NCBI GenBank assembly: GCA_903856085.1
Contig: CAIOAT010000047.1
Location: forward strand, 84,634 to 148,633
Source: Candidatus Omnitrophota bacterium
Lineage (GTDB): Bacteria; Omnitrophota; Omnitrophia; Omnitrophales; Aquincolibacteriaceae
Direction: 5' to 3'
Length of the DNA: 64,000 bases
Part shown: positions 1 through 64,000 of the stretch, in pieces
Numbering within the stretch: position 1 is the stretch's first letter
How the letters are laid out: each line of letters begins with the position of its first letter
Notes under the pieces: generated by a model
Seen by the model: the letters and a program-made list of their open reading frames with translations, nothing else
Database searches by the model: none
Told to the model about the DNA's origin: nothing
Position numbers and translations under genes: made by a program

Positions 1-1160
1 TATGGAGTGTGTCCTCAGTGAAGGTGAAGATGTCGTCTACCGATTTCAAAACACCGTACTCTTTAAAGAGAGCGATGGTCGCCGGCTTATTGCCGTCCCC
101 GAGCAGACCTTCGTCAGGATAGGCGCGGACATAGTGCCGGTAATAATCCCCGGTGATTTTATCTGCCAATTGAGGTAAAGCTTTCTGGAGCGCACCCTGG
201 CCGAACAGGACGTGCTGAATGGTCATCGCCAAAGGTATGACGATCGCTGATTTTCCGAAACCGGTCGGCGCGTAAAGGTTTTCATATTGAGCTACTACGA
301 ACCTCAGGATCGTCTGATACTGACTGACGCTTTCCTTGTCACCAAGCTTTATGTTCATAACGTTCTTGCCCTCGAAGAACCGGACGATCCCGTTCACCTT
401 GCTGGCTAATTCAATCTCATGGTTCAAGTTCCGATCGAACTCTGCCAGTTCATTCGCTGAAAGTCCGTTCCGTAGAACCTGGAGTCTTTCCGCATTCTCG
501 ACCAGAACAACCGTTTGACTGGATTGATCCCACTCCAGCCGCATACCGTCCGGCACCAGGTATTTCCGATCCGAGAAATATTCAGCCATCCCCGCAGCCC
601 CCTGGTCGATGAGCTGTTGCTTGGAAAGCGCCTTGAAGATGGAATCCGGATTGTCTGCGGCAGCCCAGGTACGGAGCCGGCTCATTTCGTTTCTCACAAA
701 CGCCTGGACCGGCAGCGGAACGTTAAAGCGTGCGGCTCTTTCTTTCATCATCCGGTCACGGATGGATGTCACAAGCCGCGTGGGTTTGGCCATCTCCTGC
801 TGGACATTTGTCAGCATGGCCCGGTAGGTATCGATCAAGCCCGTGAGCAAGCGAACCTCCGGGGGCCCGCGCGCCGGATCAACGAGTTGATCCACTTCCT
901 GCTTCAGATTGGCCGCCTGGTCCGTGACCAATCCCAACTGGATCTTCAGGCCCTCGAGTTCAGCCTCAAGCTTTTTGACATAATTTTGTTTTTGCAGGCT
1001 GCTGGGGTCGTTTGCCAGTTTTTGCTGGGCTTCGATCAACTGCAGCCGTTTATCGTTGAAACTGTTCGTGAGTTTATTTATAAAAACGTCTAAGGAGCGG
1101 CCTACCTCACTGATCGTCCAATCCAATTCCTTTCGCATGCTTTCTTCTGTGACATGAGCT
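1..1160 (-). other. SF2 (DEAD/DEAH-type) helicase-like ATPase domain, N-terminal part; the domain continues past the window start.
   Basis: Walker A / helicase motif I YAPTGFGKSAIVIPLAMT is encoded at 248-271 (minus). The flanking translation (verified 86-301 and 1256-1420) is globular-looking, e.g. ...FVVAQYENLYAPTGFGKSAIVIPLAMTIQHVLFGQGALQKALPQLADKITGDYYRHYVRAYPDEGLLGDGNK... No stop in frame through 1-1480. Confidence 0.6.
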
Positions 1161-4100
1161 ACTGCCGCAGGCGCAGCTTGGGGCGCCTGGACCAGCGTGG
1201 CCGGAGCAGTTTTCACCGCATTGGGAACCGCCGACGCTACGACCCCTGGAGTGGCGGGAGCTTTCCCGAACTTCCCTGAGAACCAAGCCATCATCCGTTC
1301 CAGAGCGGACATTCCGGGAGCATTTATTTCGATCAGCTGATCCACTTTCGCTTTTTGCGCGATGGTCAACGATCCATCGGCGACAAGTTTTGCCATGACA
1401 GCTTTGACTTCATCCACAGAGGCTGGTTTCTCCGCCGAAGGAACCCCGCCAAATCCGAAAATAGACTGCAGTGTTTTTCCTGCCGCCTGGGGTCCGCCGT
1501 TCAGGACATCGAGGTTATTTTTGACGTGCACAGCGATTTGTTCAGCGATGGCGCCGACGATACCGCTCAAGAGGCCTTTTTCAGCGCCCTGCGCGGCTTT
1601 GATCAGATCAATTCCCTGTTTTTGGGCAAACTGCCAATGGACCCCCAGGCGAGCCATTATAAATTCAAGGAACGAAGAACCAACGGGGCCGGTTGTGGAG
1701 ATCTGCAGTGCCAGCCAGCTTGCCACTGCCCCCGGTAAGTGGAACAGCGCGAAAACAGCCGCGGATAAATTGACAAGCCTTTTTGCGGCCTTCTCGCCAA
1801 GGAAGGAACCGATCGCGGCAGGTATTCCGATAATGACCGATGTTTCGAGGACGGGCATAATGTAACCGTTGATGATCCTATTCAGGACCTGTCCGATGTT
1901 TTGCCCGAAGACCTTGCTCGAAAAATTTGTCAGGCTTTCCAGGACCGATCGCACGATGCCGGCAGGCCGTGTCGTAGTCGCCAGAACAGCCGGAGCAGTG
2001 AGCGCGGTGGGCGAAACATTTGATTTTTCGATAGCGGGGATCGTCTTAAGGCCCGCCTGATCAAAGAGGAATGCCCGGTGATGTCCGTTGTCAATAGCAA
2101 TCGAACCATCCGGCAGGTGCAGGATCTCGATAGGATTTGCCTTCGTGAATTCAATCAGCTTGGCGATCGCTGCGGGGCTTGCTTTAAAGGCAGCCAACAT
2201 TTCTCCCATCGTCGCATTCCCGGGGATTTTCATCCCAAGAACATTGACCAAAAGATCGTGGATGCTCTGGATCGTGACTCCCTGGCGACCGATCTCTCCC
2301 CGAGGCGTTCTCAGGCTGTCGATCAGAATTTCTTCCGGAGCGGTGGCGGGCGTCTGGACGGTTGTTGCGGGCGCTGTCGTGCGTCCAAGAATGCGGTCAA
2401 TAATGGCACGGAACAACTCCGCGAACCCGGCGAAAACGGATTGAACCTGACCCGTTGATCTCCCGCCGATATTGGTGCCGGCAACACCGCCCTGGCCTTC
2501 CACAACGGGAGTTGTCCCCTCGGGAAGTCCCGACAGACTGACCGCCGAAATTTCCGCAAGGATGGGCAGAATGTTCGCCAAGGCGGTACCCCGGATATTT
2601 CCGAGATTGATGTCCCCGACTGTCGCAGGCTGATGTGCCAAGCTATCTCGCAAAGCCACCGCCTGGCTCGCCGTAAAATCGGCCGGCAGGGTGAACGAAA
2701 CCGTTGCAAATCCCTCTGGGATCGCCGTGATCACGGCTGTTATTTGACTATCCGTCAGATCTCGGCCAAACGTGATGGAAATATCCTGCGCTCCACCGGG
2801 TACGGTCCTCTGTATTTCCATAAAAAGATCGCGATTTAGGCTCTCCACATTCCGCCCGTTAATCTCGAGTTCGACCATCGGCGCTCTCGCCGGCGCTTCG
2901 GATTCGGTTATGCCGTGCTTCAATGCGTCGGCGGCTCGCGTCACATCGATCGGCGCCTCCTGGTGCCGGTAGGCCGCCTGATCGCGAACCACCGAGGCAC
3001 TATCAAAAGTTTCGTGAGTCGTTCTTACTTCAACACCGATCCCCGTAACCGCCCGGATGAAATCGAGAATCCCGGACGCGGGTGCTTCGTGTGTTCCCGC
3101 CTTTATTTCGCCTGGGATTTCCGTTTGCGGACGTTCGAGCTTACGCGTCGGTGCTTCCGCTCTCAAACGGGCCTGTTCGGCGGCATCATCCATGCTCTTC
3201 TGAGCAAAGCTCTCAAGGTCTAATCCTTCTTTTACTGCTTCATCCACCTTGAGCCTCATGCTTTCGCCCGCCTTGAGAACTTCGGAGACCAAGTCGGACT
3301 TGCTCAGATTTTCTCTTTGCAACTTACCGGTTCCCGAGAAAAACTCGCCGATAAGACTATCCACTCTTCCCCGAAGGGCCTCATTCGCGAGCGCACGGGT
3401 AAGCGCCGTTGCCAGAACATCGACGAGCTCATTCCCCTGGACCGCACCGATATTCGTGATCTCGCCGATCCTGAGGCCGAACTTCTCTTGAATGGCGTTG
3501 CGCAACCCTTCGGCATCCAGCGTACCGTCCGCTCTGGTAAAATTTTTGACCAGGTCTATCATTTCGAGGCGAACATTTTCCGGCACGGACGCCGTCGTGA
3601 TACTGCCCAGCATCTCTTGGATCTGCGCGTCGATACCTTCGGCACCCCCGAAGAAAAGCTTCATGGATTTCTGGAAGGCGGAGAAAACATCCCCTTCCAT
3701 CAAGGCGCGCTCCAAGGACCTGCTGTCCGCGGCCTCGATATTGTTCTGGGCCCTGACGAATGCCTCGCGGGCCCACCGGGAAGTCGGGAAGAATTCCGCA
3801 AGCCTCTGATAAGCGCCGTCCACAAACCGGCTCAAGCCTGACGACATTCCTTCCCCAAATCCTCGCATTAAAAATTCACCGCTGCCGATTGCCGTTCCTT
3901 TTTCGAGCGATACCAATTGATAGCTGAATCCCACATCGCCCTGGCGGCCCGCACGGCCACGATTCTGCATATCTGCCCGGACGGAATCGTTCACCCCGAT
4001 CCCGATTTGAACAAGACCTTGGGTCTTCAGCAGTTCTTTAAGCTTGATATCCGTTCCGCGGCCGGCGATATTGGTCGCGATTGTAATGCCTCCCTTTTCA

Positions 4101-7100
4101 CCCGCGGCTTTGATGATATCGCTTGACGCTCTCTCATTGCTCGCATCAAATGTCCGGAAGAGATCACCGTTTTTGGTATTCATGGAATCCAGGATTTTCT
4201 TGGCACGCTCGACGACCACAGGATCGAAGACAATCTCCTTGCCGGCCGCGTCTATGCCTTTACCGCTGGCGAATTCTTCGAGGATGGCTCGGACATGGAC
4301 TTCCATTTCTTTGGCGCTTTGGATAGATAACGTTGTGATCAGGAAGGAGCTTCCCGCATCCAGGAGGTGCCGCGCCAAAACACTCTTCAATCCGTTCGGC
4401 CCGTTCAGGAGGTCCGCGTCGCTCCTAAAAGTCCTCATTTCCGAGTCAACCCGTAGCTGCAGGTTGTGCGCGGGAATCTCCGCCACCTCAAGACCGTAGA
4501 GGCGCTTGAGCGTATCAGGCGTCCGGCCTTCGGTCGCAGTGCCGGTCATACCCGTAACCCTCTGAAAGAAGTTCAGAACGTCCCGTGTCTGGATACGGGC
4601 CGTGGTCACAGTCTCAGCATGAATGGCCAAACCTTCTTTAGCTTCAATAGCCTGGTGGAGCTCGTTCAAACGCTGACCGTTTTGATCGGTGCCGGTTTCA
4701 CCGCTGATCAGTACGACATTTCCTTGGTCATCAACGCGATATTGGACCCCATCATGGAAAAGGATTTCGGCCTGAACGGCCCGGTCCAAGAACTTTTGTC
4801 CTTCCGCCGTCAAAGTCAAACGGCCTGATCCGTCTGTCGCGACCTCAACAAACTGGTGGAGACCCTCGGCTTGCAGTAAACGCGCGGCCAGTTCACGCCC
4901 GGCATCGGTTGCATGGGCAAAACGTCCCGCTTGATCGAAAACCACCTCAAATTCTCCGGCCACTCCCTCAGGTCCCTTCACGCCGCTCCTGAAAACTTCG
5001 GTCCCTATCTTGGTGCGTTTCAGCTCACTTACTATTTTCGCAAACGCCGTCAAGATGTCCCGCTGTCCATTCCCAACAAGCTTTCCGGATCCCGAAGAGA
5101 TAATGAGAGGTGTTTTCGCGAGCGTGATCAGAATGGAGTCGGCCTCGTCGATCACGAGCAGGAAGTCCCGGAAATCATGTCTGAAAATTTCCTGGCCCGG
5201 TTTTGCCTGGATATCGTTGTACACCTGATCGGCCTTCAAAGCCTCGTCGCTCACATAAACAATGCTTCGCGAATAAACATCCTGTTTTTGACCCAAGTCC
5301 ATATTGTCGTGGATATACCCGATATCCTTACCCAGGAAATCCGCAATCGCCACCACCTCTTTATAGGCGGCTTCAGCCCGCTCCGTCGTTGTAGTCTGCA
5401 TAACCGCGTGGCCACTGATCAAGGCTGTCAAAAAGCCGACATAGGTTTTTCCTTCACCGGTCAGGAGCTCGGCGATCTTTCCGCCCTCAGCCATAACCGC
5501 AGACGCCATGAGCTGTTCCCGGTGAAGCACAACGGCGGGCCTGTCCGGATTACGGGCCGTTTCGACAAATCCGATCGCAAGCGCATAAGCCGCAAAAAGC
5601 TTGTCACCCTGGGCATTATTAATTAAGTCGAGGAGCGCCTCGCGGATCCTGCCAAGATCTTCAGGATTCCGGCAGAGATCATTTAACACGGCTAACGCAT
5701 CCCGGCCTTTCAGTTCGATGCCTAAGGCTTTCACAATTTCGACCGCTATGTCCCGGCGTATCGAAATAATGCTGTTGACTCTCGCCGCGAAGGGCGCTCC
5801 GGCAATCCGGTTGGCCTTGAGAATCACCCACAGTCCAGGCGCCCTCCCCGTGAGCCAAGCAAACCACGACGACCGGCCGAACAGACCCGTCTCACCCAGC
5901 TTAAAGTTATCCCCGTTAAACCTACCAAAAAGGACGTTGATTTCATCATCAGTCATTCTGGAAAGATCCGCGTTCCTTAGAGCTTCAAGCATGGCAGGAT
6001 CAACAGATTCACCAATGCCCTCTCGCAAAGATTTCCACTCTGTCAGGTAAGACTTGCCAATGTCCGCACCGCCGCCCTCAAGGGATCCAAATACGGCTCT
6101 TTCCAGTTTCTGGAGGGCTTCGAGAGTCACCCTTCTCTCGGAAATCGAGAGCGAGCCGATCCTGCCACCAACAGTCATCCAGGTCGAATTGAACCACTCG
6201 ACCGCTTTCGAGAAAACGCTCTTGAACCGATCCCCGAAAGTCGTTGTCTGTCGATCCCGTATGGCTTTTTGAACATCGGCAAGTGATCGATTCACGTCTG
6301 CGGGCACGTTCGCAGGATCGAATGTTCCGGGAGTTTGGGTCACAGTTTCGGGAGGCGTGATCTCCGGGAGCTTTTCGAAAGGCTGGCGTCCCGCATTAAG
6401 AAGAAGGTCCGCCGAAATTTCTCCTCTCCGGATAGTTTCACGGCCCACCATCACGAAATCCCCGCGGACAGCCAGAGTCTCGCCGGAGACAATGACCAAT
6501 GTTTTTCCATTCAACGAATCCCGCAAAGCAGGGTCAGCTTCGATCAGCCCTTGCAACCGTGACAACAATTCAGGCGATTCTCCGACGCCATCCCATGTCA
6601 GTCTCAGGGTTCCGTCGCTCGCGAATTCAATCGTGATACGACCCTCGACTCTGATGCCGGCTATCCTCAAGATCGAATCGATGAGAGGATTCCTGGCCCC
6701 GGGCTGGGCAAAGGTCACGACCATGTCTATGATATCGAGTAGACCCGTTGCTAAGGCAAGCCGAGTCACATCCCCACTCGGAATGGTATCGTTACTATGG
6801 GCCCCGAAAACATCGGCCAATTTCCCGGCAAACGCTTCCCAGCTTGATACATCGGCGCCTCTAAGCTCATTCAGGGCTTGCATCATTTCAGGCGACACCC
6901 CTTCGCCTCTTACATTGGCCCGCTGCTCCAGGAATTTCACGAAAAGATCTCTTAATTGCGGCAAGTCAACAGAAACAACATCTCGGGCCAGCAAGGTGAA
7001 AATATCGCGCAGCAATTCAGCGGCGAACCGGCCATTTTCGCGAGCACCCACAGCATCGACCGTGTGCAGCTCTGTCATCGAAAACATAAGTTCCGTGTGG

Positions 7101-10100
7101 AAGATCAAATCCCTTTCCAGAGAGGTTAGATCCCTTCCGCTCATAGCTTCAAAGTCAACCATGATGCGCTCCGCCCGGGCCAAACCGACCAACACAGGCC
7201 GCATTTCCCCAAAACCTAACTCGCCCCCCCAGCGCCGGATGAGCAAGTCCCCGATGAAATTGTTTGTCCAGTGGCTCAGGTCGATCCGGTCGAGCTTCAA
7301 CCCGCTAACATCAATGCCAAGGCGCGCGAGCTCCAGGATGATCTCTGTGAAATTGCCACCGAGTTTTGCCAGGTTTGCCAAGTCCAGCTTCCCGGTTATC
7401 CTGCCCCCTCCGAGGACTACCCCGGCGGCTTGAAGTTCCGCCAGAAGCCGTATTTGATCCGGCGTCAATCTGGCTCCATTCAGTTCCCCGGTGATCTCCA
7501 GTCCGCGCATGTCGACGCGGCTGTCCAACATGGTTTTCAGATCGCGGAGCGTGGAAAGATCCCCCAATCTCGCCACGTCAAAAGTTCCGGTCATTTCGAT
7601 GCCGCTAAAATCCGCGCCTCCCACCAGATCACAAAGCCGCGCAAGGTCGGCAAGACTGGTCCTTCCAATGTCGATCATCCCGGCAAATTTGATCCCGCTC
7701 AAATCCCCGCCCAATGCCCGGAGTGTCCCAAAATATTCGAGCTGAGCGTCATTGAGTTTTAACAATTCGTTGACGGTATAGTCTCCTGAAAATTTGATCC
7801 TTCCCATGTCGAGACCCATGTTTGCAAGATCGATCAAGGCGCCGAGTATGTCACGATTTCCTTCTAGCGACCTGACATCAAACGACCTGTCTACTCCCAG
7901 CCGGTTCAACAAGCTCGCGTCCAAGGAGCCATTCTCACGCATCGCACCCAGGTCTTTGACAAAGCTCGCGAACCCGGCATCCGACCACCCGCTCATATCC
8001 AACGTCACACGGAACACGCCGTCTCTGATGGCGGTAAGGAATTCGCCCGCGAGAATATCCATGGTAGCGAGCGTTTCGCCAATCCGGAAACTGATCTCGC
8101 CCAGCCTCAGGCGGTCAATGCCGAGGCTCCCCAACGCCGTCAGTGCTTCCCTGAGGCTGACTGCCTCCGGGAGATCCAAGCTGACCCTAAGACCTGTCAG
8201 ATCCAATCCAAGCTCGCCCAATTTGCTTAAAAACTCAAGAACGTCCGTGGCTCTCAAAGTCCCGGTGGTTTTCAGATCGCCGTTCACTCTGATCCCGCTC
8301 AGGTCGACGCCTTTAACGCTCACCAAATTGATGAGATTTGAAAGCACCCCGTCCGTCACTAGTTTCACATCCAGGGTTCCCTCAATTCTCAGGTGGGTCG
8401 TGTCAACGCCGACATCTCCAAGAACTTTGAGAGCACTTGTCAGCGTATTGCCATTAAGCTTTGTCAGATCAAGCCTGCCGGATATTTCGACATTATGCAG
8501 GATCGCTCCCGCGCCTAACATGTCTGCGAGGATTTGCAGCCTTTCACCCGTCAAGGTCGCGCCATCCAGTTTTCCGGTAATGATTTGATCTCTTAAACTT
8601 GTCAGGTCGATCTTGACCCCTGCGTTTTTCATTGCGTCGACTAATTTCAGAACATCGCCGAGCGACGATTTTCCGGCGCCTTCTCCGATCAGATCCCCGG
8701 GGATCTTGACCTCAAACCCTGTCGGCGCTCCTATCAGCTTGAACTCGATCCCCACACCAAGCATCCGCAGCAATGCGTCGCGCAAGCCGATGGAATCCCC
8801 CGGCTTGAAGTTCTTGAGATCCACGGTCACTTTCGTACCCCTAGGAACATCCACCAACTGGGTAAGATCGGCAAGAGAGGTCACGCGTAACGTTCTCGTG
8901 AAGAAGTTCCGGGAGATCTGCGTTAATGACGTGACGCCAAGCATTTGTTCCAGGGCCCTTGCATCTTGCGTACTGAGTTTCTTAGTGTTACTAAACTCGA
9001 GGCCAGAAAGATCCGCGCCTAATTCTTTCAGGCCCGAAAGATCTGCGCCGGTTTTCGCGAAATCGGAAACACTGATCGTTCCGTCGAGCCGGACGCCTTT
9101 CAGGCTAAATCCGTCAGGCAGAGAATCGACCACTTTGGATAAATTTTCTTCCGTGAGACCGGTTAAAACAATATCTCCAAAACCGCTCTGGCGAAGGAGA
9201 TCCATCGTGCGACCCAAGGTCGAGTCGGCGCCAAACCCAGCTGTTTTTACGTCGATCGTGAAACGCCAACCTTCTGTACCGTCTGCCCCACGCACAAGCT
9301 CCGGTATGATCCAAACATCAGTCCCGATCTTCTCGCGAATAGCTTCCATTTTGGTTTCTATTTCGGTGTGCAGCCGATCCGGCAGGTCCTTGCCGACTCC
9401 GGAGATCACCATAGCGAGCTGAGATGCTATCTTCTCGCCGAATACCGGGGTCAACGCAATGGTCCAAGCATTCATCACGATCCCGAGATCAATAAAAGCC
9501 TGGCTGAACGCAAAACCTTCTTTGGCGAGAGCCTTAATCATGACTTCCAAGTACTTGGCGACGGAAGGATTTTTGCCAAGCGTCGCGGCCTCTTCGCCAA
9601 GAACCGCTCTTTCCACGAGAGGGAAAAGCTTGTTGAGATATTCAATGACGGATCCCACCACAGGCATCCCGTGGATCAACACCTCGACCGGGCCTATGAG
9701 GTACATCAAGGGGCCCATCGAAAGCATATTCGTAAAATTATCAAAAGCGCTCATGCTGGCAAAGTCCCAGAATCCCAAAACCCCCCGCAGGAACATGGCC
9801 GCCACCTGGACAACGAATCCGCCCTTGCCGGTTCTCAAAAACGCCTCCAGATCTTTTTCCGATTGGGCAATGGCCATCCGGAAATCGATCGATCCTCCGG
9901 TCAAGAATTGGGCGAGTGAAAGCACAACATTCTCCCCGAAATGCAGAGACACGCCGAAACGGGCCAAGCTGAATGTTTGAGCCAGCAGGAATTTCCATGC
10001 CAGCACTCCCCTCGCTCCGGGAACGAATATTTGAAGGCGTAAAGCAAGAAGTCTGGCAAATTGTGCCCAGGTACCCGTTACGCCGCCTATGGCCGTGAGC

Positions 10101-55100: not shown

Positions 55101-58100
55101 TTCGAAGCCGTGTCATAAGCCCAGTTATATGTTTTGCCGAGCACGCTGATCGAGTACGAACCATTCAAAGGACTTTGAATCGTCACAGCTTCCAGTGTCG
55201 GGTTGGCGGCCGTTCCTTTGAGTTCATACAACCGGGAATCGATCTCAACGATCGTTTTACCGCTCGGCACCCAGGCCGGTGGGGCCGCGACAAACTTGAA
55301 TTTGAAGGGCACGTCATCTTGAACCAGGACGCTAAAATCACAACTGACATTTCCAAGCGTTATCGGGCTGTTCACCGTGGAAAGCGGATAGATATAATCC
55401 TGCCAGACCACAGCACCATCAGCCGTATGAATGCGGCCATACCAGTAATTTTCCCCATAAACGTCCCAGTCAATGTTGTACGTTGTTCCGAGCAATGAAA
55501 AGGTCGTCGAGAAACTGTCGGTCGGGATATTCACCTCTGCGCTCGAAACGCGATCCGTGAAAAAGTGGATGGGCGTGCCGTCGCCGTTCGTGATGACGAT
55601 CTTTCCGGCCACATCCTTCATCTCGTAATAATTGTCACCACTCTTGACGACCCGTGAAGTCAGATCCTGAGTCACCGGTCTCACAAGGGTCGCCTCGACA
55701 ATTCCCGAGGCATTCTTTGTGATCGTGAAGGTCGAACCGGACAAATCGATCGTGCCGTTTTGCAGAATCGTCTGGGTACTGCCATCCGGCATCTTGAAGC
55801 CCATGCTCCCGTTGACATTCATCGTAATTTCGTACCGCGTGCCGTTATAAAACAGGTCTTCTTTGGGCAGAGACATGGTCGCCACAACGCTTTGAACAAG
55901 ACTGAGCGACCCGTCCCCGGCCGTCTGGATCCCATAGAGAGTACTCGGGAATTGGACCGACTGACCCGCCGCATCTGACGTGATGGGAGCAACTCCCGCG
56001 GCAAGCGGCGTAAAAACATAGTGCGTCGAGACCTTCGTAACGCGGTACACCACCCCGTCGACCTTGATCTCGTAAGCCGAAGTCATGTGGGCCGAGACGT
56101 CATCGGATTGGATGCTGATCTGACCCTCGGGGCTTTGCTGGATCGAGAACTTCACGTTCGACAGCGTAATCTTGCCATCCGGCGAATAGATCTCGGCCCC
56201 CGTCGCCTTGTTCACGAACCTGTAACGCGTGTCCGGCTTATCAATCTGATACGTGATGCCCTCGAACTGCAATTCCTGAATAATGGCTGTCACATGTGCG
56301 CTCTTGCGGACCGTGCGGATCTCGATATACCCGTCGGTGGTCGTTTCCACTTCATAAACCGCCCCTCCAAGTGACACCGTACCGTCAGTCGTGAGAACCG
56401 GCTCCTGGCCCTGAACCGTGAAGGCGTAGTTACCGCCGCCGAGATCACTGACCATATAGGAAACGCCCTCGAGCCGTATCTCTTGATCATTAAGAACCTC
56501 GGCGATCTCAGGCAGAGCATCGACCTGGATCATGTTCAGGATCGGATTGTAAGTCACGGCAAACGGGGTCAAACCAGGAATGGTGAGACTAGTAATGTTA
56601 TTGCTGGTGACGGTGGTGTAAATCTTGCTCGTGTCACTTACCGGCGAAAAGCTCCACTCGCCATCCCACACGCCGTTAGTGAGTTCCTTGACCACCAGAT
56701 AATCCTGACCATTCACGGTGGTAACGAATTGGGCCGCCTGAACGCTTGTTTCATAATCTTGCTTAACCTGAAGATCGTTCAAGGTCGTTCCCGTAACGAG
56801 GAAAAGCTTTCCGTTCAATGTCACGGTGTGGCCCGATGCGGAAGTCTCACTCGTAAAAGTATGCGTACCGTCGCTAAACACAAATTCGCCGCCGACAAGG
56901 GTCACGGCATAATTCACTCCGCCGGCGCTCAGCACGGTTTGGGAAGCAGCTGTGGCGGATTCCGGGTTCTTCGAAAGGTCCACGATCTCATACGTCACGG
57001 GCTTGGGAACGATCGAGATCGCACCGGTCGAAGGATTCTTCGACACGCGATAAACGGTATCATTCATAATCAATTCCTGGTTCTCCGTGCTCGTGAAAGT
57101 GCCCACCGGCGAGTGGAAGCGATAAGTCCCGTCCCCGAGATCCGTCACGGTATAAAGCCTGCCGCTGACAAGGATCGCGTCGGACTTGGCCGCCGTTGCA
57201 GTTTCGGGCGAACGTTCAATGACCTTTCCGATCTCTTGCGGGAAATAAGCCTCCAACAGGCTCTTATTGAGTCTCATGAGTTCCGACACGGACATGTCGT
57301 TGGTCGTAGTCTTCGCTTTTGTCAAAAGAGCCTTGGCTACGTCATCGAGTTTGTCGGTGATTGTCGTACTGGCGCCGGCGGCCTGATAATCCGAATCCCG
57401 CATCCTAACTTTCAGAATGGCATTCACAGCATCTACCCATTCGGTCTTGGCAACGGTTGTCGGAGGCACGGCATTAAGTTTCGCCCTGATCGCCGCAAGT
57501 CCGATCGCAGTACCGTCCGCTCCTTTATCCCATCCTTCGGCCAAACCATTCCCCTTCAGGGAGTTGGAATTCAAATTCCCCTTCAGGTCACTCGTGGTTA
57601 ACCTCAGGGAACCCATTTCGATATTAAAAATCTGGGAATCCTCGCCGTCGATCTTCCCATCGCCATTCAGGTCGGCACGAGCATCCACAATCGCGCTTCT
57701 CAGGAATATGCCGCGCACTTCAAGCTGAGAACCGTAGGAACTCGGATAACCGGAGAACGGCTGCGTCCCGTTGCTTGTGAGCGGCTTGCCATCGCCGTAG
57801 AAGTCCGACACGGCAAAACGGATCACGTGGTGGCCTCCGGTCAGATGGAGAGTCGTGCTCACTTCATTGAAGTTCTGTCTCAGGGCTGAAAGGTTCATCA
57901 CGGTGCGCGGCTGAGCCTCGCCGTCCACGAACACGCTGATCTCAATCGTGGAATCATACCCATCGGGGAACTTCAACGCATTTTTCGCATTGAATCCGAC
58001 CACATAATCCCCAGCATTCTCCACATCAAAACCGTAGCTGAATTTCTTGTCCTTCCGCTGAACGATGAGACTTTCCCCGTCCATCACAAATGCCGGTGAC

Positions 58101-61100
58101 GAAGTGTCGCTCGCCGCATAGATGTCGTTGGGGTTGACAGTCGACTTGTAATAATCGCCGGTCAAAAGAAGACCGGTCGACGGCACACGGCTGAACGCGC
58201 TGCCATCTTTAAGCGCCAGCGCCATAACCGCCTGATCGTCGGCGTTCACTTTTCCGTCCAAGTTGAAATCGCCGATCTTCTGTTCCTTCAGGGTCAGCGC
58301 TCCGCTGCTGTTTTTCCCAACCACGTAATGGCGACCGTGGAGCGTCAACTCACCGATCCCGTGGGAAATGAGCCCGGTATCTTCATAGGCATAGATCTCA
58401 CCGCTGGCAGTCTCCTTAAGGTAAACCGCGACCGGGGTAGTGTCCTTGAGAATCATAACTTTTTGGAGGTCGGACGTGCTGACCAGACGGTTCATGAGCA
58501 CCTCGACGTCCCTCGAATCGATCACGCCTTCTCCGTCGGAGCTGATATCAAGCGATGGGTCGTAATGCGCATCGCGGAAAAAGACGTTACTCACCGAGAT
58601 CCCGGTCCCAACGATAGGATTTTTCCAAACGAATTTGATGTCCCGTTTCGGCAAGTATGGCAAGCTCACCTTGAGGCTACCCTCAGTGGATAAGCCGCTG
58701 GCAGGAACATAGAATTGTCCGTAGGAAACGCCGCCGATCTGGACCTCGATGAGATATTGATAATCCGCCGGCATTGCCGCTAATTCAGTCGACGTCATAT
58801 CGGCCTTCGCCTGGAGGCCTATTTCATAAAGTCCCGAAACGGTCGCAGGGATTGGAACGTTGTCATAGGTAAGAGAGCTTTCACTGCACGGAGCCACATA
58901 GCAATGAGCGCGAACATCTTTGTAACCATTCGCAAAGCCGCTGCGATCGGACGTCCCCGCAAGAGACAGATCGCCGATCTTGCCCGATCCGACCGCCGAT
59001 TCCAAACGGGCGAGGTCCGCATCGTTAATGACACCGTCGTTATTTAGGTCATAGGGCAGATGTTCGACAAGCGTCACGCGCCCAGCGGCCGCCTTCACGA
59101 CCTCAAAATCCTTCCCTTCAACAGAGATTAACCCGTTAAGTTTCTGCGTGAAGACCTGGTCTCCTGCCCTGAGCTCCAAGCCACTTGCTGGGTACGCACG
59201 CAAGAAAACATTATCCAGTTTAAAGTTCTCCGGATAAGAATCGTTGTAAAGTCTGAGGGAATGAACGCCTTTTGTTAAATAGAACGGGACCGTCTTCCCC
59301 GCCGCATCACCCTGATTGATTGTGAACGAGCTGATCAATTTCGGATCATTGATAACCTCATTAGAATCTTTACCCTGGTAGGCTTCCATCACGAACGAGG
59401 CGCTCGAAACACCCGTCGCACCAAACTCATAAAAGCCGTCCGCAGGAACATCGATAGAGTAGCTAACGTCTATCCTGGAACCCTTGAAGACAAGACTCGA
59501 GTCTTCAGTCACAGGCACTGGATATACTTGCCAAGGCATCCCCGCGGATGGGGACAGATCTAACTCCTGAGTTCCCTGCTGACTGACCACGTAGGTCTTG
59601 TCGCCGATCTGGACAATCGTCTGGACCATGCTCTCCGAGGTTACCGGCATCTTGACCACCGACAAATGTCCGGACTCGTCGGCTTTGACTTGATACTTGA
59701 CCCCACCGAGCTCAAACGTATGATCCGCGCCCGCGACGATGCGGTCTTTTTCGAGCCGAACCGCCCCGGTCCGGGCATCTTTATAGACAGCGTACTCGAT
59801 TCCTCCCAAGACCACCGTGGAGCGAAGAAGCTCCCTACTGACCGCGCCCTGCCCGGCCACAAGTTGGCTCGTGACCCGCGGAACGTTGACCTCGCGCAAG
59901 AAAACCTGATCCAATCCAAAAGACGGCGTTTCAACCATCGGATCTTTAGGCGTCGCGGAAACCCTGATCGAATGAGACCCTTTTTCCAAGGAAAAGGAAC
60001 TCATCGTTTTCACTTCTTGATCCCCTGGATTGTAGTCGAACGACCCCACATCGATGCCGTCAATCGAGATAGAGACGCGATACGCGTCGCTCGGCTGGGC
60101 CTTGAGCCCAAATTCGTATGAACCGGCGTAGCTGACAGAAAAAGAATAATTTTCTCCATCGGATGCAGGCTGAGCAAATTCCTGGCGTTCCTGATCCGAG
60201 AACGCATAAGTCCCGTCCGCCTTCTGGGTCACTTCAAATGTCTTGTCTCCGATCTTGAGCAATCCGCCGGTCACATAAAGCACTTGGCCGCCGTCAAGCT
60301 TCATGACCTCATAACTGCCGTCTTCGAGCGTTGAAACGGAATATTTCGAGCCGTCGATCTGAACGATCGTGGAAGACAGGTTCTGGCTCTCGGCATGGCT
60401 TTGGCCCAGGGTCATGTGGCCAGTCGCGTCTTTCCCTAGGATCAGCTGGAGACCTCCGAAGTCCGAAAGCACAACTTTTTGATCCGAGACACGGCTTGTC
60501 GCCACCGCGCTGGTGGTGAATTCCTGCAGATCAAAACCGCCACCCTGCTTTTCGGAAACGCTGTATTCATGCCCTGCGACTTTCAGAGTATTGGCCGCGA
60601 CCGGCATGCTGATAAACTTTTCATAGATAGCAAGATCTGCCGCATCCACGCGCTTATCGTGATTGAGGTCCAGTTTTGGATCAGCTCCCTTGAGAGAGAG
60701 ACCCTTGATCCTGACATCAGCAACCTGCTCGCCCTGCGAGACATTAAAATTGTTTACCCACTTGACCAAAAAGCTTTCGGCCCCGGTATTCAGGACTCCG
60801 GGAATATTCGCCAGAACCGTCTGATACCCGCCATTCTTCCACGGCACAACGATCGTCGTATCAACTCCGTCCCCCGTCACACTAAAAACGAGATCTTCCT
60901 TCGGGAACCCGTTGTCCCAACCAAGCGGGTAATCGACGCTGATATCAAAACCCAGAGAATATTGGCCGGGATCCAGGACGTTGAAAGTAGGTGCAAAAGT
61001 GACGCCGCTGTTCGTAAAGTGGGATATATCCCCTGCCTGAGCTATCGTCGTAGAGGCATCTCCATTCCAATACTCATCCCAGAGCATCAATCCAACAGCT

Positions 61101-64000
61101 CTTTCCGAATCACTGGTAATGCCGTCTCCGTTCAGATCGTAACCGCTATAATAATCAGGCGTTAATAAGCTAGCCGCAGTCAATGCCGAAGATCTCAAGG
61201 CCTGATCAAAATAATCCCGGTCCAACGAGTCGACGACGCCGTCACCGTTCAGGTCCAGGGAGAAATCCTTGAGATTGGCGTCGATGTCCACATAGACATC
61301 ATTAAGTCCGGAGAATTTTCCGTCCTGAGTCAGGACCTTATACTTCGTGCCGCCCAAAATGACAGAGTTTGTCGCAGGATCGCTCGGAACAGGCGCCGAA
61401 GCATCACCTTGCTTCGAAAAGCTGAAGCCCCCGCCCGGGGTCTTCGAGACAAAATAGGTCTGGCCATCGACCGTGAGATAAGTCGTATCCTGTTCGCTGG
61501 CATAGGCTGTCTTTAAATCCTTCTCATAGGCAATCACATCAGCTTGGGTGATCACTTTGTTGGCATCGCGGTCAAAAGCACCGTTCCAATTTGCGCTTTG
61601 AATAGTGACGTTTTTCATGGCGAAACTGGCGTTATAGACCTTATTGACCCATTCGATCCGGACCGTGTGCTGGCCGGCGGACATCGGCATGACGATCGAA
61701 GCCGAATTCCAAGAGGTAGAACTGGCGGGCACCGTAATCACACCTGAGGCATTCTGCATATCATCGATAAAAACAGCAAATTCGTAGTGATCAAAACCGG
61801 CCGGCAGCGTCCGGAAACTTCCATAATAAACACTGCTGGCATCAAAGTTTAATTGGTACTGTCCACCCTGAGGAGCATTGAATCCGAAGTCTGAATAATA
61901 CTCGGAGGTATAGTCGTTCGAATAAACCTGGCTATCCCTTGCCCCGCTATTTTCGAACATATTTGATTGGGCTTCGAATTGCGGGGTGAATTGTCCGGCG
62001 CCGACGCTGGCCGCGAGATCCGTCAGATCCTTCTGATTGATCTTGCCGTCGCCGTTCAGGTCGAGACCGGCCGGAGCACCGACGCGGGAAATATTCATCA
62101 CTTCCTTGCCATCCACCGTCGCAGGGATAAGCTCATAGGTGAATCCGCCGATGTCGTATTGCATGGTACCTGCGTTGGGCGAATATTCCGTCCCGTCTTT
62201 TAGCAGCTTGTAAGTACCGCCTTCCGCGGGCACGATAACGAAATCAGAACCGTTGATCTCCACGACCCGTGCGCCGCCAACCGTGATCTGGTGCGGCTTT
62301 TCTTGGGAGATCTCAAGCGACCCGGTCGCGGGATCGCGGAAAACGTAATAGTCCACGCCGGCGATCTTGAACTTACCAGTGCTATCCACCGCCACCGAAC
62401 CATAGCTGCTTCCGAGCGAGTAAGTGCCGTCGCCATTGTCCTGCACAAGATAATTATGAGAAACACCGTTGACCGTCACTTGATAGACATTGTCATTCAC
62501 CCGTGTGAGCGCCACTGGGGCTTCATTCAACTGCAGAGTCCCGTTCTTGAAATCAACTCCATACGGGATCCCCGCGATCACGGTCTGCGCGGCTGAGGGC
62601 TTGATATCATAAACATTTCCGCCGCCGTCCATCAACTGGATCATGGATTCATCCACACCCGCTGTCGCCGGATTGTCCGGCAATACCTGATAGAAATAGA
62701 CCTGGCCGTTCAACTCAAACGACTTCTCCTCAATAACTGAGCTATCATTGAGCTGTTCCGTAATCGTGACCCAACCGGTGCCGCTCTCGATCGGATCGAT
62801 GATATACACGTGCCCGTCAAGGAACACCTTTTTGGCAAAGCCGTCGGTCGTCACCGATTTGTCGCCGCTGGTAAACGTGACCCGGCGCGCGTCATCAACT
62901 TTGACCACATATTCTTTGCCGTTCACCTGGATGATCTGGCTTTCGGCCAAGGTGCTTTTGCTTGCGAGTTCCTTCAGCTTGTAAATCTTTGCGGAAGGAA
63001 TATTCGCAAGAAGATACCGTTTATCCTGGACCATCACATATTCGTGTCCGTCCGAGGCATCCTTGTAGGATTCGTACTGACCGGAAGGATCGACCACAAG
63101 ATAATGATCCCCGGATTTCCGTATGGAAAATTCGTGGCCGTCTACGGTGATCTTCTGGAACGGGCTTCCGAATGACGGCGATCCGGCGACGGCTTCCCCG
63201 GCGGCCAATGCTCCGACAGCGTAGCGCGTATTACCAATGACGACTTGGTCATTGAAATACACATATTCATTAAGAGTGTCGTCATACGCGGAACTCCGCT
63301 CAGCCGGCGGCAGAGCACTGCTTTGATAAGTGTTTACCCCATCGGTCAGAATATAGCGGGTAATACTGTTCTCAACGACCTGGCGGATCTGGTAAGTCGC
63401 GTCCCCGATACGGATCGAGTTCGAACCCCAATCCGCGGGATCGCTTTCTTTGGGTGTTTCGTTCGCCCCGATGACCTCGGAATCAAAAATCGCTTGATCT
63501 TTTTCGTCGACCGTATAATCCCCGTTCAGATCGGCCGCCAGCATATTGTGCTCCGCCATGAACACATCCTTCACGGAGATGCCCGGAAGACCATAGATCT
63601 CGTCTGGGCTGTACTCCTTGGCGAATTTCCAGACGAGCTTCAGGTCATGATCGCCCGCGGCCAGATTGACCGTGAGGAAACCTTTTTCGGGCGTACCCAA
63701 CGAGTCGGGCCGGATCGCGAAATTGCCGTAGAGTTTTCCGTCGACATAGACATCAAACTGGTAATCGAGTTCAAGCAGCTGACTGGACTTGGCAGTAACG
63801 TCAGCCTTTTCGCCGAACATCGCCTTCGACATATCCGCAAAAGTTTCCGCCGAGACTCCGACGTCGTAGAGACCGCCCTTGGCAAGATTCATGGTGTAAT
63901 TCAACTGGTTGACGGTCTTGGCGTCATAGCCCGCGGGATTCGCCCGGTTATCGCCGCGGAGACTCGGCACCGTGAACACGGAATCGCCCTGAGCGTAAAA
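1..64000 (-). CDS. Giant multidomain protein, partial at both ends: at least 21,333 codons in the window, with no start or stop codon inside it. Codon phase is lowest codon coordinate = 2 mod 3 on the minus strand.
   Basis: Hand translation of the minus strand at about 20 sites gives protein-like sequence in this one phase. Sites: 1-1480, 2072, 3932, 4043, 4535, 5138, 5441, 7646, 10382-10558, 12815, 14041, 16556, 18850, 19346, 20072, 20341, 24416, 28800, 30056, 35041, 42541, 43469, 44273, 45452, 53000, 57650, 61232, 61500-64000. Codon-by-codon scans of 1-1480 and 61500-64000 found no tta/cta/tca triplet in this phase, so no minus-strand stop. The ORF track has 56 minus ORFs, all in phases 0 or 1 and none in phase 2, consistent with phase 2 being occupied throughout. 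The long plus-strand ORFs (17846, 19979, 23039, 26309, 33239, 35309, 41948, 46388, 47615, 52931, 56483) are all plus phase 2, the in-phase antisense shadow. I did not scan every codon of 1480-61500, so a single ORF rather than several same-phase ORFs is probable but not proven. Confidence 0.72.
2030..2130 (-). other. Possible ParB/Srx-fold (ParB-like nuclease) motif segment.
   Basis: The translation LHLPDGSIAIDNGHHRAFLFDQAGLKTIPA is encoded around 2075-2092. The D-x-G-H-H-R pattern resembles the ParB/sulfiredoxin-superfamily active-site motif. This rests on one motif only, so confidence is low. Confidence 0.3.
3930..5650 (-). other. SecA-like DEAD motor ATPase domain (NBD1, PPXD-like insert, NBD2) embedded in the giant ORF.
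   Basis: Four SecA hallmark motifs are present in SecA order and spacing. Motif I is AELLTGEGKTY at 5441-5467 (SecA: MKTGEGKTL). Motif II is VIDEADSILITLAKTPLIISSGSG with DEAD at 5138-5149 (SecA: DEVDSILIDEARTPLIISG). Motif III is GMTGTA at 4535-4552 (identical to SecA). Motif VI is ATNIAGRGTDIK at 4043-4075 (SecA: TNMAGRGTDIKL). Further down is RGRAGRQGDVG at 3932-3961 (SecA: RGRSGRQGDPG). Spacings are about 103 aa from I to II, about 200 aa from II to III, and about 157 aa from III to VI. The 200-aa gap matches a PPXD-like insertion. Confidence 0.8.
6400..9350 (-). repeat. Coding tandem leucine-rich repeats of about 33 aa (LRR-like or pentapeptide-like solenoid).
   Basis: The verified translation at 8290-8480 is ISGRLDLTKLNGNTLTSALKVLGDVGVDTTHLRIEGTLDVKLVTDGVLSNLINLV. 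The translation at 7510-7666 is GRTSLADLARLCDLVGGADFSGIEMTGTFDVARLGDLSTLRDLKTMLDSRVDMRG. Both show periodic L/I/V spacing with G and D at fixed positions. The plus-strand shadow ORFs at 6357-9422 are correspondingly Ser/Arg/Leu-rich and repetitive. Confidence 0.55.
9400..10700 (-). other. Hydrophobic membrane region with at least one clear transmembrane hairpin at 10382-10552.
   Basis: The verified translation at 10382-10558 is HNVIATGVAIIVGAIAVVLAVVKISAAVAAGTFLVAGGWIGVAIVAGVLLTGGLIALAY. This is two hydrophobic stretches of roughly 20+ residues separated by KIS. A further hydrophobic segment, VIDFIGFAAEAAFLGFTS, is verified at 10150-10230. Additional candidate helices lie between 9400 and 10150 but were not all verified. 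Confidence 0.6.
10700..18300 (-). other. Large non-repetitive region of unknown function, about 2,500 aa.
   Basis: Protein-like in-frame translations were sampled at 12815 (GFEAGGHVPSQGSFNGGIQMIVDDFANSM), 13981-14100 (YLERVYNTHVGGTGSKNVLSTSSATTGIDLVNGKFDEAEK) and 16556 (SLSAAASLNTNGVNWNTNV). I recognised no family-specific motif. Confidence 0.4.
18300..20500 (-). repeat. YD/RHS-like repeat region (coding).
   Basis: Verified translations are LLTVDRTGNVERYSYMRDTSGNIMKDSTGKPIETYILHS at 18850-18960, EIYSYTTYYRDANDRLVQTTAVAYPQTGV at 19265-19350, and VTNYAPDGSVLTTNYSWYGTDGALQRVDYMRKDSYQITGQ at 20281-20400. All three fit the YD-repeat pattern x-Y-x-Y-D-x-x-G-R/N-L/I. Confidence 0.55.
20500..29000 (-). 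other. Mixed region: coiled-coil-like A/Q/K/L-rich segments plus small Cys-containing and beta segments.
   Basis: Verified samples are AAANHTQAAWRQLWVDYYN at 24416 and PDYPDECGTYECITI at about 28770-28815. The intervening translation is alanine/lysine/glutamine-rich. Confidence 0.4.
29000..43200 (-). other. Very long alpha-helical low-complexity region (A/L/Q/S/T/K-rich), about 4,700 aa; a putative stalk or fibre.
   Basis: Verified in-frame samples are VLKNQLLSVQTEMGNLRNLIANEVQKPLSQMED at 29960-30060, GSASSAMLAEKILRELEAA at 35041-35100, and TRALELKDRAGNISAAALD at 42541-42600. Nucleotide composition is dominated by gcc/gcg/ctg/cag codons on the minus strand. Confidence 0.5.
43210..44510 (-). 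repeat. Cluster of dockerin/EF-hand-like Ca-binding loops (D-x-N-x-D-G-x-I/V-D).
   Basis: The loops are FDITGDGMV (43211-43237), VDRNGDGVI (43289-43315), DVNKDGKID (43469-43495), VDVNADNKI (about 43570-43600), ADIDADGKV (about 43640-43670), IDVNGDGKVD (44273-44302), ADVNHDGKF (about 44347-44375), and QDVNNDGVV (44481-44510). Confidence 0.7.
45450..46150 (-). repeat. Ca-binding loop cluster.
   Basis: The loops are DVNGDGKID (45452-45478), LDFNGDGQV (45950-45976), and MDINGDNW (46124-46148). Confidence 0.6.
46620..47265 (-). repeat. Ca-binding loop cluster in dockerin-like pairs.
   Basis: The loops are ADTNKDGIV (46627-46653), YDLNNDGVV (46738-46765), ADVNKDGKV (46818-46844), RDLNGDGVF (46923-46949), ADVNGDNE (47004-47030), and ADLDGSGTV (47236-47262). 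Confidence 0.65.
49680..50690 (-). repeat. Dense cluster of at least 10 Ca-binding loops (dockerin-like tandem pairs).
   Basis: The loops are DLNGDGVVNDADV (49678-49716), QIDVNGDGLITEMD (about 49745-49786), DYLGDGQV (about 49861-49885), ADVNGDK (about 49945-49965), ADINGDGK (about 50135-50158), YDLNGDGKF (about 50228-50255), ADVNHDGKV (about 50315-50340), QDVNGDGLV (about 50565-50592), and ADVNKDGT (50651-50674). Confidence 0.7.
50700..64000 (-). repeat. Tandem beta-rich modules with a recurring hairpin motif and single Ca-binding loops between modules; the region 47300-49650 has the same character.
   Basis: A verified module at 52990-53110 is ANSDTAYTDFQEIAFGGTTYRIDKIAGGEVKLLSPAPG. The recurring motif is h-G-G-x-x-Y-x-V/I-x-x-x-x-D-G-x-x-x-F. 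Single Ca loops are ADLNGDGKI (57650-57676), GDFNLDGKV (58246-58272), YDLNNDGVI (about 59019-59048), GYDLNGDGI (about 61114-61140), LDLNGDGVV (61232-61258), LDLNGDGKI (62038-62064, out of frame, see the frameshift entry), and ADLNGDYTVDEKD (63503-63541). The contiguous verified translation of 61500-61981 and 62102-64000 is beta-strand-like (Y/T/V/S-rich). Confidence 0.55.
61982..62090 (-). other. Compensated +1/-1 frameshift segment inside the giant ORF; one Ca-binding repeat is read out of frame.
   Basis: In the ORF phase, this segment translates as GDEYFPRRCSGRSRPERRRQDQSEGSDGSRGQRRRRTIHP, which is Arg-rich and unlike any flank. The adjacent phase (lowest coordinate = 1 mod 3) translates as VMNISRVGAPAGLDLNGDGKINQKDLTDLAASVGAGQFTP, a canonical copy of the window's Ca-loop motif. 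The upstream flank ...YELIPATVDGKE and the downstream flank EFEAQSNMFENSG... are in the ORF phase. The two junctions sit at plus-strand homopolymers: ggg/aaa at 62085-62090 and gggg at 61982-61985. The ORF phase contains no stop across the segment, so the ORF stays open. Confidence 0.6.

Follow-up and report, generated by a model that had tools for sequence, protein, structure and literature searches.

A 64-kb window read as an internal slice of a dockerin-type giant surface protein gene, with a SecA-like motor behind the membrane anchor

We analysed a 64,000-nucleotide stretch of DNA (hereafter the window) that is occupied from edge to edge by a single open reading frame (ORF) on the minus strand. 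We read the window as an internal slice of one gene of at least 21,333 codons, which would encode a dockerin-type giant surface protein of Omnitrophota, and we put the probability of this reading at roughly 80%. From its N-terminal to its C-terminal side, the translation presents about 17,800 acidic residues that carry dockerin modules and a DUF1080 domain, followed by a conserved membrane-proximal module, a cluster of transmembrane (TM) helices, and a tail that bears a motor domain. Residues are numbered from the window edge, such that protein residue i corresponds to plus-strand positions 64000-3i+1 .. 64000-3(i-1).

A six-frame stop count over all 64,000 nt found zero stops in the minus-strand frame beginning at plus 63998-64000, compared with 936 and 899 stops in the other two minus frames and 1,087, 200 and 869 stops in the plus frames. 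With a per-codon stop probability of 0.042 (from base composition) or 0.043 (from the off-frames), log10 P of finding no stop in 21,333 codons is about -397 to -407, i.e., ~1e-400. The initial annotation had proposed one giant gene across the 64 kb in this frame, which any in-frame stop between 1480 and 61500 would have split; none was found, and the proposed mass of ~2.3 MDa agrees with the 2.305 MDa computed for the in-window translation (pI 4.7, Cys 0.11%). Codon-position GC content was alike in every 500-codon bin (GC1 ~0.55-0.62, GC2 ~0.35-0.47, GC3 ~0.55-0.75; overall GC of the window, 54.6%), and the off-frames each contained 10-37 stops per bin. Because the codon periodicity is uniform and off-frame stops occur in every bin, we conclude that the giant frame is coding over the entire window, and not just open. 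Rfam and tRNA scans of the window returned no matches.

The DNA itself is not repetitive. No tandem repeats were found in the 64-kb window, and the only similar DNA repeats were those of a ~40-nt motif family encoding the dockerin calcium loop, at 62-83% identity. Internal repeats at the protein level have diverged to 22-54% identity. The absence of tandem or long near-identical repeats makes misassembly through repeats unlikely.

The giant ORF is absent from ORF listings because ORFs that are open at both ends go unlisted. The 18 listed ORFs that reach 250 residues are all on the plus strand, and the initial annotation had taken the long plus-strand ORFs as in-phase antisense shadows. This holds for 15 of the 18, which by start coordinate lie in the plus frame with 200 stops; that frame is antisense to the coding frame codon for codon, and its stops correspond in number to three rare sense codons, TTA (69), CTA (32) and TCA (99). 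It does not hold for the other three (358, 264 and 269 residues; plus 6357-9422), which occupy another antisense frame that is not in phase. Across this interval (minus-strand residues 18,192-19,214) the out-of-phase frame has 3-6 stops per 2 kb, versus ~30 elsewhere. The three translations are rich in S, P and R, and the sense protein there is rich in L, G and D; these ORFs are most likely compositional shadows, not genes.

The domain content of the translation was surveyed by searching Pfam in ten 2,500-residue tiles. Dockerin_1 matched in five of the ten tiles, with E-values from 7.7e-17 to 1.8e-56, and EF-hand families matched as well; these modules extend from about residue 650 to 10,250. 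A motif scan identified 32 dockerin-type calcium-binding loops between residues 647 and 13,273, and none C-terminal to the TM cluster. Since all of the calcium loops are N-terminal to the TM cluster and this part of the protein is acidic, the first ~17,800 residues are probably outside the cytoplasmic membrane. Within the densest dockerin ladder lies a DUF1080 match that scored 40 bits against a cut-off of 26.8 and covers profile positions 13-186 of 187. Together, the dockerin/EF-hand modules and DUF1080 bear out the adhesin-like part that had been proposed from the first inspection of the sequence. The coordinates of these and the other features are collected in Table 1.

Table 1. Features of the giant ORF, ordered by residue, with plus-strand positions in the window
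Feature	Residues	Window position	Strand	Basis
Single ORF, 21,333 codons, running off both window edges		2..64000	-	Zero stops, uniform periodicity
Distal beta-leaning acidic region (presumed extracellular)	1-7,100	42701..64000	-	Scattered and clustered dockerin/EF-hand modules, divergent internal domain repeats
Densest dockerin/EF-hand ladder	4,429-6,940	43181..50716	-	Dockerin_1 E 1.8e-56, 7 stretches
3-keto-disaccharide hydrolase / DUF1080 (concanavalin-like)	5,388-5,548	47357..47839	-	PF06439, E 5.5e-10
A/L/Q/K/E-rich helix-leaning region (~7,400 residues)	7,101-14,480	20561..42700	-	Composition
Block colinear with Candidatus Omnitrophus fodinae giant ORF (~6,300 residues)	11,298-17,577	11270..30109	-	Protein alignment
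Conserved beta-rich module without Pfam match	14,481-15,415	17756..20560	-	Few YD-like hairpin motifs, e.g., VDRTGNVERYSYMRDTSGN
Best-conserved segment, outside of membrane anchor	15,979-17,600	11201..16066	-	Identity to relatives
Transmembrane cluster	17,817-18,119	9644..10552	-	Kyte-Doolittle 19-residue means
L/G/D-rich region, repeat of ~45-50 residues	18,280-18,930	7211..9163	-	L 15.8%, G 11.6%; periodic by eye
SecA-like motor, NBD1-PPXD-NBD2	19,476-20,060	3821..5575	-	Pfam, PDB, motifs, AlphaFold2
Predicted 42-residue helix just after NBD2	20,075-20,116	3653..3778	-	Model residues 675-716, pLDDT ~59-66
Moderately hydrophobic segment	20,702-20,844	1469..1897	-	Hydropathy peaks 1.6-1.73 at residues 20,714-20,767
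Second Walker-A-like motif, APTGFGKS	21,244-21,251	248..271	-	Seen by eye, 82 residues from window edge

The remainder of the N-terminal portion differs in composition along its length. By a crude composition measure, beta propensity equals or exceeds alpha propensity in the bins covering residues 1-6,000, whereas from 7,101 to 14,480 alpha propensity exceeds beta propensity and helix formers make up 44-54% of residues. The resulting split between a beta-leaning part, up to about residue 7,100, and a helix-leaning part, from there to 14,480, is a crude one drawn from composition only. The helix-leaning region matched a single Pfam family, Dockerin_1, near residues 9,843-9,899, and contains lone dockerin loops at 9,843-9,915, 10,237, 12,684 and 13,262. 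Pfam tiling of the window found no discoidin, GNAT or C39 domain, no peptidase domain and no cohesin domain, and TSP3 (PF18884) had no match at E<=0.01 in any tile.

The protein is anchored, by hydropathy, near the C-terminal end of the window, where a membrane anchor had also been annotated initially. The cluster comprises two strong TM helices (17,817-17,835, mean 2.87; 17,854-17,872, mean 2.43) and two weaker ones (at 17,931, 1.71; at 18,101, 1.69). Before residue 17,817 there are only two weak hydropathy peaks, one of them at residue 7,246. Beyond the cluster, the tail extends for at least 3,200 residues within the window.

Embedded in this tail is a domain with the nucleotide-binding domains (NBD1, NBD2) and the preprotein-binding domain (PPXD) of SecA. 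It was matched by the Pfam profiles SecA_DEAD (E 3e-33), SecA_PP_bind (3.5e-6) and P-loop_SecA (1.7e-14), and it retains intact SecA-like motifs: Walker A TGEGKT (19,514-19,519), VIDEADS (19,616-19,622), GMTGTA, AGRGTDI and RGRAGRQGD. The catalytic columns of the alignment are invariant, and Bacillus SecA residues 81-560 (of 836) align to the motor with 29% identity. PDB sequence searches over the entire protein matched SecA alone, with SecA chains aligning to the motor at E 6.7e-35. For an AlphaFold2 model computed with 37 canonical SecAs, the mean predicted local distance difference test score (pLDDT) was 61.7, with values of 70-90 in NBD1 and PPXD; the model's best structural match was the SecY-engaged B. 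subtilis SecA 6itc_A (E 4.4e-35, TM-score 0.67 on target), and superfamily 2 (SF2) helicases were only distant secondary matches. Because all catalytic motifs and the preprotein-binding domain are present, the motor is probably an active ATPase. SecA-like and helicase ATPases had both been called in the initial annotation; the SecA-like motor stands, and we found neither a separate helicase nor a second profile-supported ATPase.

The motor departs from canonical SecA in context and in extent. Canonical SecA is a free-standing soluble protein of ~800-1,000 residues, whereas the window motor is part of a continuous ORF, lying behind a TM cluster and some 19,500 residues into a chain of 21,333 or more. 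Both share NBD1, PPXD and NBD2 with conserved Walker A, DEAD, TGT, GRGTD and RGRxGRQGD motifs, and the AlphaFold2 model superposes on SecA structures, SecY-engaged SecA included; in contrast to SecA, the window contains no Pfam match to the scaffold/wing domain SecA_SW (PF07516), the motor has no C-terminal zinc finger, and its identity to any standalone SecA is 27-33%. No convincing alignment to the two-helix-finger signature was obtained. Immediately after NBD2, the model predicts a 42-residue helix. Of the 'AQKKVE' with which the canonical scaffold begins, the window keeps the Q and the E (VRAQNNIEAAD), and the NCBIfam SecA envelope reaches profile position 723 of 814. From this slight evidence, the helix is possibly a remnant of the start of the SecA scaffold helix.

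This order of parts matches a described class. West-Roberts et al. 2023 (10.1101/2023.11.21.568195) termed proteins of at least 10,000 residues 'large' and those of at least 30,000 'giant', and described dockerin-type giant proteins with dockerin/EF-hand modules, TSP3 repeats and DUF1080 in a mostly TM-free N-terminal part, then a C-terminal TM anchor and SecA domains lacking the scaffold/wing. A class 3, 'Dockerin-bearing', and a SecA_DEAD architecture cluster were also reported by Nielsen & Lui 2026 (10.64898/2026.06.07.730766). Among Omnitrophia, giant ORFs of more than 20 kb occur in 20 of 23 genomes, Candidatus Omnitrophus fodinae included, and those bearing dockerins have been considered putative adhesins (Seymour et al. 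2023, PMC10066038). The window shares with the dockerin type its Dockerin_1/EF-hand modules, DUF1080, a long N-terminal part in which hydropathy peaks are weak and number only two, and a preponderance of sequence that lacks annotation. Its internal repeats, too, are old, divergent ones and not recent tandems, and its TM anchor lies toward the C-terminal end, after which come SecA_DEAD and a preprotein-binding domain without scaffold/wing. It differs from the class in that TSP3, discoidin, GNAT and C39 were not found in the window, and in its SecA-like domain, which is ~30% identical to ordinary SecA, keeps all of the catalytic motifs and may retain the beginning of the scaffold helix.

Compared with the archaeovorin type, represented by the 39,678-residue protein of Velamenicoccus archaeovorus LiM, the similarities are more general: a giant Omnitrophota ORF, membrane association, a SecA-like domain and a proposed role in cell contact. 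Archaeovorins have dozens of TM helices, glycosyltransferases, methyltransferases and NUDIX domains, and no dockerins, whereas the window ORF carries dockerins and a single TM cluster, and of its very few enzyme domains none belongs to those families. With at least 21,333 residues in the window, the protein exceeds the 'large' threshold, and with both of its ends off-window this length bears neither way on the 30,000-residue threshold. It had first been ranked among the largest bacterial proteins described. That ranking is outdated, as the longest protein in West-Roberts et al. 2023 has 85,804 residues, and Nielsen & Lui 2026 reported 3,650 proteins that reach 10,000 residues and 348 that reach 30,000, the longest having 147,155. 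So read, the window gene is a new member of a described class, and neither a size record nor a new architecture.

We compared the window with related sequences in protein, genome and metagenome collections. The best matches of the dockerin ladder were partial ORFs that fill short contigs from metagenome-assembled genomes (MAGs) of Candidatus Omnitrophica/Omnitrophota. These accounted for six of the eight best matches (P0121, E 2.5e-141; P0122-P0124, P0127 and P0128), at 25-31% identity. The ladder matches align in several repeat registers, which indicates a shared modular architecture, not orthology. A two-sequence alignment of the window with the protein fragment P0133 was used as a probe for genome searches, and the juxtamembrane segment served as a second probe. 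The first probe recovered one genome locus, in the single-cell genome of Candidatus Omnitrophus fodinae SCGC AAA011-A17 (ASOC01000002.1; contig 6947-29475, L001), which has 0 stops in the 22,529 nt fetched and a GC content of 52.1%. It is colinear with window residues 11,298-13,042 (30% identity over 1,929 residues) and 13,066-17,577 (34.8% identity over 4,800 residues). The juxtamembrane probe recovered two Joint Genome Institute (JGI) metagenome contigs: Ga0080064_1008675 (L002; GC 54.1%, 43% identity over 1,698 residues) and Ga0156133_175 (L003; GC 47.4%), the latter stop-free over 15,881 nt and colinear with window residues 13,961-17,641. Identity was highest across residues 15,979-17,600, at 46% to O. 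fodinae (~700 residues), 43% to L002 (1,698 residues) and 41% to L003 (1,547 residues). In all three loci, TM clusters occupy the same relative position, after the conserved module.

The O. fodinae ORF, the closest relative found, is thus stop-free, colinear, similar in GC and alike in the position of its TM cluster, in line with the comparability to Omnitrophota giant genes that had been suggested at the outset. With only about a third of its residues identical to the window protein, it is nonetheless a distinct gene and not one from the same species. By sequence comparison, the window gene would be a diverged member of a giant-ORF family that is anchored in Omnitrophota. Searches of GTDB genomes (species representatives) and JGI metagenomes with the C-terminal 5,000 residues found no relative, and when the SecA-like region was searched against a protein database, the matches were all ordinary SecAs (27-33% identity), with neither the window protein itself nor any giant protein among them. 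The SecA-like domain carries no taxonomic signal, and the names of its top matches are uninformative. The O. fodinae giant ORF, 35% identical over 4,800 residues, is itself missing from both large protein databases. Negative protein searches for giant genes are therefore weak evidence and do not indicate rarity; giant or end-truncated ORFs seem to be under-represented in these databases.

The loci differ from the window behind the membrane anchor. Between the TM cluster and the segment matching residues 20,702-20,844, there are ~590 residues in L003 versus ~2,580 in the window, and no SecA similarity was found in the 15,881 nt of that locus. It therefore appears that the L/G/D-rich and SecA-like block varies within the family, being absent or relocated in L003, and that the motor is not one of the family's constant parts. 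Pfam searches of the tails of all three loci gave no matches. L002 has an in-frame TAG at nt 1929-1931, exactly at a Trp codon of the window, to be explained by a nonsense mutation or by an error in sequencing. The ORF of L002 continues for ~1,280 residues beyond the match to the juxtamembrane segment and then ends; its last ~60 residues (nt 8600-8822) resemble the C-terminus of an NAD-dependent sugar epimerase, as would be expected if the contig were chimeric or two genes had fused.

The continuous frame could be real and yet yield smaller polypeptides, through proteolytic processing or through internal translation starts. Such an outcome would suit the marked heterogeneity of the modules in the window, and some giant proteins bear C39 and S8 peptidase domains that might cleave them (West-Roberts et al. 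2023). The window sequence offers little to support either route: it encodes no peptidase domain recognised by Pfam tiling, and only one in-frame ATG in 21,333 codons (residue 14,374) has a strong Shine-Dalgarno-like sequence upstream. Moreover, zero stops have been kept over 64 kb here, over 22.5 kb in O. fodinae and over 15.9 kb in L003. These stop-free frames in the window and its relatives argue for selection on continuous translation, and we regard smaller products as unlikely.

The giant surface protein could instead belong to a bacterium outside Omnitrophota, for example a member of the Planctomycetota or Verrucomicrobiota, or could have been acquired horizontally. Dockerin, DUF1080 and large genes are also common in other phyla of the Planctomycetota-Verrucomicrobiota-Chlamydiota (PVC) group, and the GC content of the window, the lack of a close relative of the C-terminal 5,000 residues in GTDB representatives and JGI contigs, and two weaker matches to the conserved module that carry other taxonomic labels (see below) leave room for such an origin. 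Against it, the only genome match is O. fodinae, colinear over ~6,300 residues and similar in GC, and six of the eight best dockerin-region matches and two module matches are Omnitrophota MAG fragments. We consider an origin outside Omnitrophota distinctly unlikely.

The initial annotation had also listed RHS/YD repeats, and with these the gene might be read as an RHS/YD giant, Tc- or polymorphic-toxin-like, in which an Rhs cage delivers a toxin. The likeness to RHS/YD-repeat proteins consists of a few YD-like beta-hairpin motifs, at residues 14,500-15,100 and 17,560-17,600. The pattern 'Y.YD..G' occurs once in 21,333 residues; RHS/YD profiles had no match to residues 14,401-16,000 at permissive thresholds (Pfam E<=10, NCBIfam E<=1); and Pfam tiles and NCBIfam found no Rhs core, PAAR or toxin domain in the window. 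An exhaustive HMMER search with residues 14,481-15,680 retrieved eight proteins among 1.84 billion representatives. These include colinear fragments (P0133, P0134), Omnitrophota MAG fragments (P0135, P0139), and two weaker matches labelled Babeliales and Leptospiraceae. Conserved motifs are visible in the alignment of the module homologues, and six homologues of residues 14,481-15,415 had no Pfam match, RHS/YD included. With no profile match in either the window or its homologues, we rejected RHS/YD repeats in residues 14,401-16,000, and a toxin-delivering RHS/YD giant is very improbable. A structure predicted without alignment for 333 residues of the YD-like module was uninformative (pLDDT 38) and was not used. 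The module at 14,481-15,415, the part that the initial annotation had called RHS/YD, may correspond to the RHS-reminiscent beta-helix predicted by West-Roberts et al. 2023.

That the stop-free frame is an assembly artefact (a chimera or a collapsed repeat) has a negligible chance of being right: giant repetitive genes are hard to assemble (10.1101/2023.11.21.568195) and L002 looks partly chimeric, but the window has no tandem or long similar DNA repeats, its composition and periodicity are uniform, chance cannot yield 21,333 stop-free codons, and independent assemblies agree in their colinear order across thousands of residues.

Several points weigh against a dockerin-type giant surface protein of Omnitrophota, or limit it. 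Both gene ends are outside the window, and with them the start, the stop, any signal peptide and the neighbouring genes. The window carries no marker genes and its assignment to Omnitrophota comes indirectly, from homologues at 30-46% identity, and the protein is known here from its gene sequence alone. About 92% of the protein (an estimate) has no Pfam match, and TSP3 repeats, a published feature of the class, had no match in the window. L003 lacks the L/G/D-rich and SecA-like block between the TM cluster and the hydrophobic segment. The topology derives from a simple hydropathy scan, and the two strong helices, acting alone, would return the tail to the outside.

Taking the gene as a dockerin-type giant surface protein, the N-terminal ~17,800 residues would form a calcium-stabilised adhesive fibre or coat, whose DUF1080 (glycan-binding) and dockerin (protein-docking) elements would contact another cell, as has been proposed for the class. 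The C-terminal TM cluster would anchor the protein, and the tail would be cytoplasmic. The motor is translated last, too late to help export the 1.9 MDa on its own N-terminal side during translation. A role in trans is the more coherent one, and we speculate that the motor acts as a membrane-tethered translocation ATPase working on new copies of the giant protein, or on partners, at SecYEG. A more elaborate version would make the tail a self-contained membrane-tethered export engine, an add-on module that threads the 1.9-MDa fibre or its partners through SecYEG in trans, in an Omnitrophia lineage without close relatives in the collections searched. Its candidate parts would be a leucine-rich-repeat (LRR)-like module, a catalytically intact SecA paralogue that keeps part of the scaffold helix, another membrane-associated stretch and, at the window edge, the beginning of a further P-loop ATPase. 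We hold this version to be doubtful.

For the class, the matter of interest is how very small, host-dependent bacteria make, export and use a multi-megadalton chain. The window leaves the general picture of giant proteins unchanged; it adds a well-resolved, non-repetitive example of ~21,000 contiguous residues in which the passage from the extracellular part through the anchor to the SecA-like motor is complete. The module at residues 11,300-17,600, common to O. fodinae and the two metagenome contigs, could seed family-wide comparisons.

The rest of the tail gave few matches. A database search with the TM anchor and adjoining tail (residues 17,751-18,950) found none, and the L/G/D-rich region at 18,280-18,930 had no Pfam match; judged by eye, this region appears LRR-like, and it is presumed to be cytoplasmic. 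The hydrophobic segment at 20,702-20,844 is 26% identical to residues 4,849-4,963 of the L003 translation (E 9e-8 to 2e-7) and is possibly membrane-associated. Close to the window edge, the APTGFGKS motif may mark where a further SF2/SecA-like ATPase domain begins that continues off-window; this suggestion comes from the motif, and a search with the last 176 residues gave no Pfam or PDB match.

Downstream of the SecA-like motor, AlphaFold2 predicted a compact run of four beta-alpha units at residues 20,376-20,489 (2534-2875, minus strand; pLDDT 64-82). The motif DNGHHRA, at residues 20,637-20,643 (2072-2092, minus strand), lies within ILHLPDGSIAIDNGHHRAFLFDQAGLKTIPAI and by eye resembles the ParB/sulfiredoxin-fold signature, but Pfam and PDB searches at E<=10 did not back this likeness. 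GC skew is at its most negative in window positions 6001-12000 (-0.09 to -0.16), where AT skew becomes positive; this interval holds the TM cluster and the LRR-like part of the tail, and the skew changes there because the local amino-acid composition shifts within the same ORF.

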